Shown here: positions 58,101-61,100 of the stretch, in pieces
How the letters are laid out: each line of letters starts with the position of its first letter
Position numbering within the stretch: the stretch's first letter is position 1
NCBI RefSeq assembly: GCF_041248615.1
Contig: NZ_CP158427.1
DNA length: 64,000 nt
Origin: Escherichia coli
GTDB taxonomy: Bacteria > Pseudomonadota > Gammaproteobacteria > Enterobacterales > Enterobacteriaceae
Direction: 5' to 3' (one strand)
Program-made: the position numbers

Positions 58101-61100
58101 GCTCGACGAGATTGTGCGGTTCTTCGAGGCGCGGGTTTCCGCCTTGCGACGGAGCGGGGTCGCTGCCGACCGGCTCATCCTCGATCCGGGGATGGGATTT
58201 TTCTTGAGCCCCGCACCGGAAACATCGCTGCACGTGCTGTCGAACCTTCAAAAGCTGAAGTCGGCGTTGGGGCTTCCGCTATTGGTCTCGGTGTCGCGGA
58301 AATCCTTCTTGGGCGCCACCGTTGGCCTTCCTGTAAAGGATCTGGGTCCAGCGAGCCTTGCGGCGGAACTTCACGCGATCGGCAATGGCGCTGACTACGT
58401 CCGCACCCACGCGCCTGGAGATCTGCGAAGCGCAATCACCTTCTCGGAAACCCTCGCGAAATTTCGCAGTCGCGACGCCAGAGACCGAGGGTTAGATCAT
58501 GCCTAGCATTCACCTTCCGGCCGCCCGCTAGCGGACCCTGGTCAGGTTCCGCGAAGGTGGGCGCAGACATGCTGGGCTCGTCAGGATCAAACTGCACTAT
58601 GAGGCGGCGGTTCATACCGCGCCAGGGGAGCGAATGGACAGCGAGGAGCCTCCGAACGTTCGGGTCGCCTGCTCGGGTGATATCGACGAGGTTGTGCGGC
58701 TGATGCACGACGCTGCGGCGTGGATGTCCGCCAAGGGAACGCCCGCCTGGGACGTCGCGCGGATCGACCGGACATTCGCGGAGACCTTCGTCCTGAGATC
58801 CGAGCTCCTAGGGATCGCCTCAGAAAACGGAATCTATGGTCACTCCCGTTTTTGCAACACCGATTTTGACGACAAGTTGGCTTGCTTGAATCTATCCGGC
58901 GTCTGAATGGGATTTTATTCCCGCGCCTTGATGAGTTCCGCGCCTGATGAACCTCCAGAAAATATACGGCTTCAATGAGCCTTTCCGTTTTACAGGTTCC
59001 TCAACAGGCCGGTGGGCCGTTAGTATCATCAATATCAGTATTCGCAAAACCAGATCAGTAATTCTTTAAACCGGTGTATTTCTGCCGTTATGCTACATAA
59101 GTTTGCTGTCGTGCCGTTAGGGCCCAGGCTATTCTGGCCAGCTTGTTTGCCAGAGCACAAGTGACGACAAAGTTGCTTTTCCGGCACAGTAAATCCCTGA
59201 CCCAATCGGCCAATTTGCCAGACTGGTGTTCCAGTTTTTGTATGAATACCCTGGCACATTGAACCAACAAAGTTCGGATCTTTTTATTACCTCGCTTACT
59301 AATTCCCAGCAATGTCGTCCTACCTCCTGTGCTGTACTGCCGAGGTACAAGCCCTGTTGCCGCCGCAAAGTCACGGCTGCTGGCGTACTGCTTCCCGTCG
59401 CCAATCTCAGTTGAAATAGTACTCGCTGTCAGTGTTCCGACGCAGGGAATGCTCAGCAAGCGCTGTCCAACCTCATCTTCGTCCAACTTTCGTTTCAACT
59501 GGGATTCCAAATCTTTAATCTGCTCAACAAGATAGTGATAATGCTGTTGTAATTTCAGCAATAACTGGCTGAGGTAAAGAGGCAAACTATTATCCTCAAG
59601 AATGGTACTCAGTCGGCTAATAACGGCAGCTCCTCGGGGAACGCTAATGCCAAATTCCAGCAGAAAAGCATGCATTTGATTGGTTGTTTTTACCTTATCC
59701 TGAACCAGGGATTCACGGACACGATGCAGAGCCCGCATTGCCTGCTGAGATTCCGTTCTGGGCTGCACAAAACGCATAGACGGACGCGATGCAGCTTCAC
59801 AAATAGCTTCGGCGTCGACAAAGTCGTTTTTATTGCTTTTAACGAACGGGCGGACAAATTGTGGTGATATCAGCTTTGGGGAATGCCCCAACTCTTCCAA
59901 CTTGCGTGCCATAAAGTGAGAACCGCCACAGGCTTCCATTGCGATGGTTGTAGCGGGGCATGTCGCCAAAAATTCGATCAACTTTGGCCGGGTAAATTTT
60001 TTACGGTAAACAGCCTTCCCGCGACGATCCTGGCAATGAATATGGAAAGAGTTTTTACCCAGATCGATACCAATGAGCGCAATGTTTTCCATGATAGTTC
60101 TCCGAATGAAAGCCTGTCCTCAGCATAGTACCGGGAAGGAGGGAGTGACCATCTCATTAAATAAAGCACGCTAAGCCGTAAGTAAGCGTGCTCCTGTGAA
60201 AGCCACAGCTAAAACTGCGTAGTACACATAGAGGTATTTTTTTCTAGATTTATATCGAATTTCGTTATCGAATTTCGCTTATTATTGATCAACTCGTTGC
60301 AGATCATGAAGGCGAAAGTATGACGAATAACCCTACCGATGACAGCAGACCATGGTCGGTCTTTCTTATTTTTCTGCGGCTTGGATTGACATCTTTTGGC
60401 GGCCCCATTGCGCACTTGGGCTACTTCCGCGCCGAATTTGTCACACGGCGGCGCTGGCTCTCCGAACGGAGCTATGCTGACTTGGTCGCGCTTTGTCAGT
60501 TCTTGCCAGGGCCTGCAAGCAGCCAGGTCGGCATAGCGGTAGGACTGTCTCGGGCTGGATACAGCGGGGCGCTGGCTGCTTGGGCTGGCTTCACGCTGCC
60601 GTCTGCCATAGCCTTGATCCTTTTTGCGCTCGGCATCTCCAGCTATGGCGATTACGTCTCGCAGGGCGCGTTGCATGGCTTAAAAGTGGTGGCTGTGGCC
60701 GTGGTCGCTCAAGCAGTATGGGGCATGGCGCGTAACCTATGCACGGATGGGCTGCGAGTCACCATCATGGCAATTGCTACCTGCGTCGTTTTACTTGTGC
60801 CGTCCGCGTGGGGACAGGTTGGCGTGATTGCTATCGCAGGCATCGCAGGCCGGTTATTGTTCAAGCCAGCGAAAGTTGTTGAGCATGACCCCCTACCTAT
60901 CACGGTCAGTCACCGGGCCGGCGTGCTTTGGCTCTCGCTGTTCTTTGTCTTGCTGATTGGCCTGCCGGTGTTGGCCGAACTGATGCCAAGTCAAACCATG
61001 GCAATGGTGGATTCCTTCTATCGTGTCGGATCACTGGTGTTCGGCGGTGGTCACGTTGTGCTGCCATTACTGCAAGCCGAAGTGGTGCCCTCCGGCTGGG

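Follow-up and report, generated by a model that had tools for sequence, protein, structure and literature searches.

Which mobile element separates the class 1 integron from the chromate-resistance gene chrA in a multiresistance region of Escherichia coli, what sequence did it strike, and is it responsible for the loss of part of orf5 or for the expression of chrA? These questions are raised by a stretch of 64,000 nucleotides (nt) of contig NZ_CP158427.1 (assembly GCF_041248615.1), referred to here as the window. A preliminary description of the window had placed an insertion sequence (IS) of the IS110 family between the 3'-conserved segment of the integron and chrA-padR, and this placement was correct. 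We consider it very probable that the element is a complete IS4321 seated in the Tn21-type end repeat of a chrA-padR remnant, that orf5 had been cut earlier, and that the site was most likely found with the help of an RNA guide. The identity and boundaries of the element, its target, the order of events, the reuse of the site and the covariation of guides with targets were all read from the comparisons described below.

The boundaries of the element lie at 58833-60159, because perfect 12-bp subterminal repeats lie near both ends and because deletion of this segment yields a sequence that is found elsewhere with 674/674 identical positions. The span proposed earlier, 58907-60270, missed these ends by 74 bp on the left and by 111 bp on the right. 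The element and its target have the following parts:

58833-60159, minus strand: complete IS4321 (IS1111 subgroup of the IS110 family), 1327 bp, delimited by exact excision and comparison with plasmid R751
59088-60092, minus strand: intact transposase gene, 334 amino acids (aa), with Pfam domains PF01548 and PF02371
60153-60159: 7-nt terminal extension beyond the left repeat, TAATGAG in IS orientation
60141-60152, minus strand: left subterminal inverted repeat, 12 bp, perfect partner of 58836-58847
58836-58847, minus strand: right subterminal inverted repeat, 12 bp, complementary to 60141-60152 at 12/12 positions
58833-58835: 3-nt terminal extension beyond the right repeat, AGA in IS orientation
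58833-59087, minus strand: 3' non-coding region, 255 nt
58811-58832, plus strand: outer 22 nt of a 38-bp Tn21-type terminal inverted repeat (IRchrA), GGGATCGCCTCAGAAAACGGAA
60160-60175, plus strand: inner 16 nt of the same 38-bp repeat, AATAAAGCACGCTAAG

The 334-aa transposase had been assigned to the IS110 (DEDD) family and to the opposite strand. This assignment, rather than one to another transposase family, was upheld by a Pfam scan of the open reading frame (ORF), which has an N-terminal DEDD/RuvC-like domain (DEDD_Tnp_IS110, PF01548, E 1.3e-20, residues 7-146) and a C-terminal IS116/IS110/IS902 domain (Transposase_20, PF02371, E 4.4e-20, residues 210-286), both above the curated cut-off. 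Within this family, the IS1111 subgroup has subterminal inverted repeats of 7-17 bp which do not lie at the termini proper (PMC11187229, PMC11208160), a 7-nt left extension is a stated feature of the subgroup, and the 7-nt/3-nt layout is that of IS1111-type elements (PMC11187229). Here the perfect 12-bp repeats lie 3 nt and 7 nt from the IS ends, and the earlier remark that such elements lack inverted repeats does not hold for this one. Non-coding DNA is longer downstream of the transposase gene than upstream of it (255 nt vs 67 nt), and the C-terminal motif GL-P----S(t)G, a hallmark of the subgroup (PMC11187229), reads GLVPRQYSTG at residues 247-256. There is no target-site duplication: deleting the 1327 bp rebuilds the empty site exactly. 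A 1-nt T/A ambiguity in the placement of the junction persists, as was pointed out for IS4321/IS5075 in PMC5001619. Flanks and orientation are constant in both R751 copies of IS4321 and at the loci L004, L011 and L013. On these sequence features, together with its near-identity to the IS4321 reference of plasmid R751 in both nucleotides and protein, the mobile element belongs to the IS1111 subgroup within the IS110 family and is IS4321.

The preliminary description had asked which sequence was targeted. The answer is a 38-bp Tn21-type inverted repeat divided 22/16, GGGATCGCCTCAGAAAACGGAA^AATAAAGCACGCTAAG, where ^ marks the insertion point here and below. The rebuilt 38-mer agrees with one Tn21 end repeat of R100 at 36/38 positions and with the other at 35/38. 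It is of the Tn21-subgroup type GGGG...CTCAGAAAACGGAAAATAAAGCACGCTAAG, with its inner end toward chrA; no second half-site like the 22 nt at 58811-58832 was found in the window. The Tn21-type 38-bp repeat is a known target of IS4321/IS5075 (PMC5034289, PMC5725488, PMC8269217), and a division into 16 + 22 bp, as in the window, is described in PMC5725488. Insertion had been proposed to be site-specific, and this was borne out, as the flanks GCTTTATT^TTCCGTTTTCTGAG and the same orientation are shared by the window IS, both R751 copies and the IS5075 copies L004 and L011. The transposase genes, the resolvase genes and the second end repeat of the chrA unit are all gone, and we therefore regard this unit as a transposon remnant.

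Did the insertion cut orf5, as the preliminary description implied? Two overlapping features are relevant here:

58634-58811, plus strand: what is left of orf5 in the 3'-conserved segment of the class 1 integron (59 codons + 1 nt), with 100% identity to the Tn21 gene
58634-58906, plus strand: chimeric 90-codon ORF in which the orf5 remnant continues through the end repeat into the IS at its right end (RefSeq WP_004883563.1)

The gene is indeed truncated, not intact, but the cut falls after 59 codons and 1 nt and not after the 90 codons given earlier. In an ungapped comparison with the intact Tn21 orf5 of R100 (11564-12064, GNAT family, 166 aa), identity is perfect over 58634-58811 and then collapses, and the ~31 remaining codons of the 90-codon ORF were contributed by the end repeat of the transposon and by the IS, at its right end. 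RefSeq annotates WP_004883563.1 as a "hypothetical protein" in many plasmids; judged by its sequence, this annotation is an artefact that the IS insertion created. We built the empty site in silico by joining 58500-58832 to 60160-60500 (674 bp), and this sequence is present, uninterrupted and identical at 674/674 positions, in many plasmids of Aeromonas, Klebsiella, Citrobacter, Escherichia and Salmonella. The empty site is covered over at least 80% of its length in at least 1243 records and the occupied site occurs in at least 525. NZ_CP022176.1 is an example of the arrangement with no IS. As many plasmids have the junction unaltered and without the IS, the orf5Δ-IRchrA-chrA junction must be older than the IS, and because orf5 already ends at the repeat of the chrA unit in that form, the IS did not cut orf5. 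The site was also used more than once. A Klebsiella pneumoniae plasmid, CP026154.1, has the same orf5Δ-IRchrA-chrA site with an IS at identical position, in identical orientation and with identical flanks, and 89/89 of its mismatches to the window lie inside the IS. Since this plasmid bears IS5075 where the window bears IS4321, the site has been struck at least 2 times independently. The likely order of events is that the chrA unit would have joined orf5 at codon 59, replacing the distal part of the gene in a class 1 integron, and that IS4321 would then have entered the end repeat at position 22/23, in the fixed orientation and without target duplication.

How could the element recognize such a site? 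In 2024 it was reported that IS1111 elements need a seekRNA from their 3' non-coding region (ISEc11, ISPa11, ISKpn4 and ISPst6), and that two segments of this RNA, one for each target strand, are complementary to the target and overlap at the insertion point, the top-strand match being the 5' one (PMC11187229). Right-end bridge RNAs have been predicted in 93% of IS1111 elements (PMC11208160). The 3' non-coding region of the window copy contains the following predicted parts:

58930-59056, minus strand: invariant 127-nt block, IS positions 1104-1230
58949-58999, minus strand: predicted seekRNA or target-binding core, proposed from guide matches, a recurrent fold and kept stems
58999-58994 / 58954-58949, minus strand: outer stem GAACCU / AGGUUC, 6 bp
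58991-58982, minus strand: 5' loop strand with guide T, AAAACGGAAA
58981-58968, minus strand: apical hairpin GGCU-CAUUGA-AGCC
58965-58958, minus strand: 3' loop strand with guide B, (A)UAUUUUC

Guide T, AAAACGGAAA, is complementary at every position to the top strand T^TTCCGTTTT; guide B, UAUUUUC (58964-58958; AUAUUUUC), equals TATT^TTC and is complementary to the bottom strand. Each guide reaches across the insertion point, and they follow the published order, with the match to the top strand on the 5' side. This arrangement was equalled in 1/100,000 shuffles of the non-coding region. In every folding context tried, the guides lay on opposite sides of an internal loop between the outer stem and the apical hairpin. 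In the proposed register, each loop strand would read across the insertion point: on the right flank ~9 nt fall to the 5' loop strand and 3 nt to the 3' loop strand, and on the left flank 1 nt and 5 nt, respectively. Among the window copy, both R751 copies and IS5075, the 127-nt block had 0 variable columns, while 96/1005 columns (9.6%) of the transposase gene varied in the same comparison.

The guides also change together with the target among more distant relatives. We took these from blastn of E. coli genomes, not from the tblastn of plasmids, and compared the loops at the same alignment columns in three relatives (L006, L007 and L008) with 66-69% nucleotide identity and other targets. The loop sequences of L006, an ISSfl8-type element, match its own flanks, AGATGAAA^T on the T side and GGGGA^TTT on the B side, and so do those of L007 (AAGAAA^A and ATGGT^TTT, respectively). 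L008 matched its own flank on the B side (GGGTC^TTT) and was used for the B guide only, having lost its subterminal repeat and acquired an internal stop in the gene; no match of its T guide to the L008 right flank, which is at a rearranged end, was found. Cross-combinations of guides and targets among the relatives gave only 0-6 nt. The outer stems of the relatives keep 5-6/6 pairs, with one compensatory change of A-U to G-C, and the apical stem is invariant; these stem counts rest on a manual register, a MAFFT gap having fallen inside the 3' arm. RNAalifold, run on the six-sequence alignment, returned a different, weak consensus because of this gap.

A closer relative, L005 (NZ_CP027343.1 95532-97448), is 89% identical, frameshifted and 1317 bp long, and lies in another Tn3-family end repeat, GGGATATT^TTCGTTTCCC. 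Its B guide fits its own site at 8/8 positions and its T guide approximately; of its two guide-segment substitutions relative to IS4321, one, an A replaced by G in the T guide, agrees with a G of the target. This copy could represent a partial retargeting or an off-target insertion.

Targets outside the Tn21-type repeats show the same recognition core. IS4321/IS5075 or relatives were found by distant blastn in 1719/5426 E. coli genomes, at 653 chromosomal places. By tblastn of the transposase, IS4321/IS5075 copies of 95% identity or higher were found in at least 5000 plasmid records. Two chromosomal non-repeat targets in E. coli are AAATT^TTCCGTTTTCC (L009, a yfeC-like gene) and ACATT^TTCCGTTTTCC (L010). 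What these two and the Tn21-type target have in common is only ATT^TTCCGTTTTC, that is, the stretch under both guides. A 13-bp target consensus and off-target insertions in ureC (ureC::IS5075) have been described in K. pneumoniae (PMC8269217), and both L009 and L010 fit that consensus and off-target behaviour. The likeness is that a gene resembling the core of the end repeat is hit, as at the E. coli chromosomal sites; the difference is that the window copy occupies the canonical plasmid target. The yfeC-like chromosomal regulator gene is interrupted by IS4321/IS5075 in several E. coli strains (L009 is NZ_CM125669.1 4827019-4828945; further cases are H180 and H181), and the site looks like an equivalent, in E. 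coli, of the ureC hot spot of Klebsiella.

The mechanism which seems most likely to us is that a seekRNA or bridge RNA from the 3' non-coding region of the IS itself finds the target site. The loop strand AAAACGGAAA would pair with the top strand T^TTCCGTTTT, the loop strand (A)UAUUUUC would pair with the bottom strand opposite TATT^TTC, and the DEDD transposase would recombine the excised IS circle with the site. For the window copy, production and binding of the RNA and formation of the circle are expected from what is known of the family. The proposal shares several features with the seekRNAs of ISEc11, ISPa11, ISKpn4 and ISPst6 (PMC11187229) and with the bridge RNA of IS621 (PMC11208160, PMC11208158): a long non-coding region downstream of the transposase gene, and two short segments that address both target strands, overlap at the insertion point and place the top-strand match 5'. 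In the relatives of IS4321 with other targets, the stems are kept and the loops replaced, a natural reprogramming like that known from ISEc11 and ISXne4. There are also differences, since no separate donor-binding loop of the kind known from IS621 was recognised in IS4321, the IS4321 RNA is a predicted one, and its region matches no Rfam model. We think that the guide assignment for the IS4321/IS5075/ISSfl8 clade is probably correct, and it may then be a not yet explicitly published account of how ~13-14 bp, (T/A)TATT^TTCCGTTTT, are recognised.

Other explanations must be weighed against this account. One is that the IS itself truncated orf5, having inserted in or near the gene, so that the junction would be an IS-generated deletion. 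The IS is close to the orf5 breakpoint and the 90-codon ORF stops just within the IS, which could give this impression, but identity to orf5 is lost 22 nt ahead of the IS, the sequence left on removing 58833-60159 occurs elsewhere uninterrupted and 100% identical with orf5 already ending at the repeat, and a second IS variant sits at the identical position in another plasmid. We regard such a deletion as scarcely credible. It is also very improbable, in our view, that the element should be called IS5075 and not IS4321, although the name varies by source and papers on this chrA context usually write "IS5075": IRchrA is described as disrupted by IS5075 in PMC5034289 and PMC5725488, and CP026154.1 has IS5075 at exactly this site. 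For the naming we compared the R751 copies, the RefSeq-labelled IS5075 and one printed ISfinder protein. Nucleotide identity of the window copy amounts to 99.6% with the R751 copy at 13404-14729 (4 substitutions and 1 indel), to 97.0% with the second R751 copy and to only 93.4% with the element that RefSeq names IS5075. The transposase of the window copy differs by 3 aa from the IS4321 protein of ISfinder, as given in a supplement to PMC11187229, by 2 aa from that of one R751 copy and by 6 aa from that of IS5075, and RefSeq labels an identical protein, WP_000427623.1, as IS4321 family. IS4321 of R751 and the window copy share the length of 1327 bp, the 334-aa transposase, the 12-bp subterminal repeats and the 7-nt and 3-nt extensions, and their differences (4 substitutions, 1 indel and 2-3 aa changes) are insubstantial. 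Like IS5075, IS4321 of R751 also inserts without target duplication, at a single position and in a single orientation in the 38-bp end repeats of the Tn21 subgroup. The founding account of both elements is that of Partridge & Hall (2003, J Bacteriol 185:6371), as it is represented in PMC11187229 and PMC5034289. The R751 copy at 13404-14729 (L003) has a 1-nt deletion within the left subterminal repeat (ATGGTCACT-CC), which makes it 1326 bp in that record; in the window copy, unlike this one, the left repeat is perfect.

The view held before 2024 would be that the transposase protein itself recognises the Tn21 end repeat and uses no RNA guide. Several of our own results weigh against a guide and could be cited in favour of that view. 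No Rfam 15 match, in curated families only, was found in 58000-61000 at E up to 1, fold stability is near that of shuffles (z -0.7 to -1.4 for the core and -2.8 for the whole non-coding region), and a search for donor-binding complementarity to the circle junction gave only two 6-mers, which was equalled in 89% of shuffles. Moreover, the 89% relative L005, in another Tn3-type repeat, has a T guide that is only near-cognate, and the seekRNA experiments cover ISEc11, ISPa11, ISKpn4 and ISPst6, not IS4321 itself. On the other side, the guide-like segments cover exactly the 13-14 bp conserved in all targets, the two non-repeat chromosomal sites included; the same columns of the relatives match the relatives' own targets with the stems conserved, while the transposases of ISSfl8-type relatives are 66-71% aa identical to that of IS5075; the non-coding block shows no variation, unlike the transposase gene; and four other IS1111 members need such an RNA (PMC11187229). 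Direct reading by the protein alone thus appears quite unlikely to us, and RNA-guided targeting remains the account we prefer.

Excision may have a further consequence, for which one more feature is needed:

58852-58857, minus strand: -35-like hexamer TTGCAA near the right end

When the two ends of the window copy are joined in silico, the predicted circle junction is AGA^TAATGAG, and TTGCAA comes to lie 17 nt from GATAAT, the latter formed across the junction (58834-58833 and 60159-60156). The excised circle would in this way create a promoter, TTGCAA-17-GATAAT. Abundant IS4321/IS5075 circles with the junction AGATAATGAG and promoter boxes have been reported in K. pneumoniae (PMC5001619), and the junction and boxes of the window copy are the same as those.

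Could the inserted IS also drive chrA? The genes and other features on this side are:

60176-62006, plus strand: rest of the chromate-resistance unit, abutting IS6100
between 60175 and 60320, plus strand: chrA upstream region, 144 bp
60320-61525, plus strand: chrA (Chromate_transp, E 9.6e-84)
61536-61841, plus strand: padR/orf98, PadR-family
61879-62006: Tn21-derived fragment, 128 bp, 99.2% identical to R100 4688-4814
62007-62886: IS6100 (IS6-family transposase)

That chrA and padR follow the IS had been recognised before, and an outward or hybrid promoter of the IS for these two genes had been raised as a question. The idea has some basis, as the ends of IS110/IS1111 elements bear promoter halves (PMC11187229, PMC5001619) and the IS lies 160 bp upstream of chrA. 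However, it is the left, transposase-proximal end which abuts chrA, and the -10 half located there is oriented into the IS, the transposase likewise being read away from chrA. The -35 that faces outward (TTGCAA) belongs to the far, right end and is directed to orf5/sul1. A sigma-70 consensus scan of the plus strand over 60000-60320 found no promoter-like site toward chrA, and over 58500-60400 it gave 2 promoter-like sites, against 1.7 expected by chance, neither of which faces chrA. In the 144-bp upstream region we saw, by eye, no convincing -35/-10 pair, and no promoter was assigned to chrA. The IS-free form, which is at least as common, has the same 144 bp. If anything, the IS separates chrA from read-through from sul1. 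An IS-derived promoter for chrA thus appears unsupported, and we consider it improbable. On the plus strand, 58968-58981 form a terminator-like hairpin, GGCTTCAATGAGCC, followed by the T run TTTCCGTTTT; on the opposite strand, this sequence is the apical hairpin of the predicted seekRNA together with guide T. The hairpin could terminate transcripts that would otherwise run on from sul1 into the IS and chrA. The chrA upstream region also contains, at 60253-60277, a perfect 12-nt direct repeat, TATCGAATTTCG, twice and 13 nt apart, which may be an operator, for instance for the PadR-family regulator encoded downstream.

The surroundings are those of a well-known type of integron. The 3'-conserved segment of class 1 is present as qacEΔ1-sul1-orf5 in this order, with orf5 reduced to 59 codons, and upstream genes are aac(6')-Ib-cr, blaOXA-1, catB3, arr-3, qacEΔ1 and sul1. 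On the other side, the Tn21-like sequence at 61879-62006 means that the chrA unit ends in a Tn21-derived scrap beside IS6100; RefSeq annotates a short part of it as a partial EAL-domain (urf2-like) gene. In In37b (PMC5034289), orf5-orf6 is truncated by a unit IRLchrA-chrA-orf98 whose 38-bp IRLchrA is further disrupted by IS5075. The window shares with In37b-type integrons the array aacA4cr-blaOXA-1-catB3-arr-3, the orf5 breakpoint at the repeat of the chrA unit, the position of the IS, and IS6100 with a macrolide module downstream. It differs from them in that the published IS is named IS5075 whereas the window has an IS4321 variant, and in that the intI1 of the window is cut by IS26. Over its last 25 kb, the window matches plasmid p14408_2 from E. 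coli NRZ14408 (NZ_LT599827.1) with 100% identity. By correspondence with this plasmid (60444-75000), window ~38000-53000 contains the intI1 truncated beside IS26, aac(3)-IId, ISCfr1, blaTEM-1, blaKPC-2 and ISKpn6, and according to the annotation of the identical plasmid the multiresistance region adjoins a VirB-type transfer region.

The arrangement is thus one that has already been published and is widespread, in hundreds of plasmids, with a known element at a known target. The IS marks the end of a chromate-resistance remnant and probably immobilises that end. Beyond correct annotation the significance of this is small. The surrounding multiresistance region is a very common one in clinical plasmids, and here it lies beside KPC-2. 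A by-product of the work is an explicit in-silico map of guides and targets for IS4321-type elements, which agrees with the 13-bp specificity and with the chromosomal off-targets. If the guide assignment is true, it predicts the off-target hot spots of these elements, ureC in Klebsiella and the yfeC-like gene in E. coli, and a route by which they could be retargeted.

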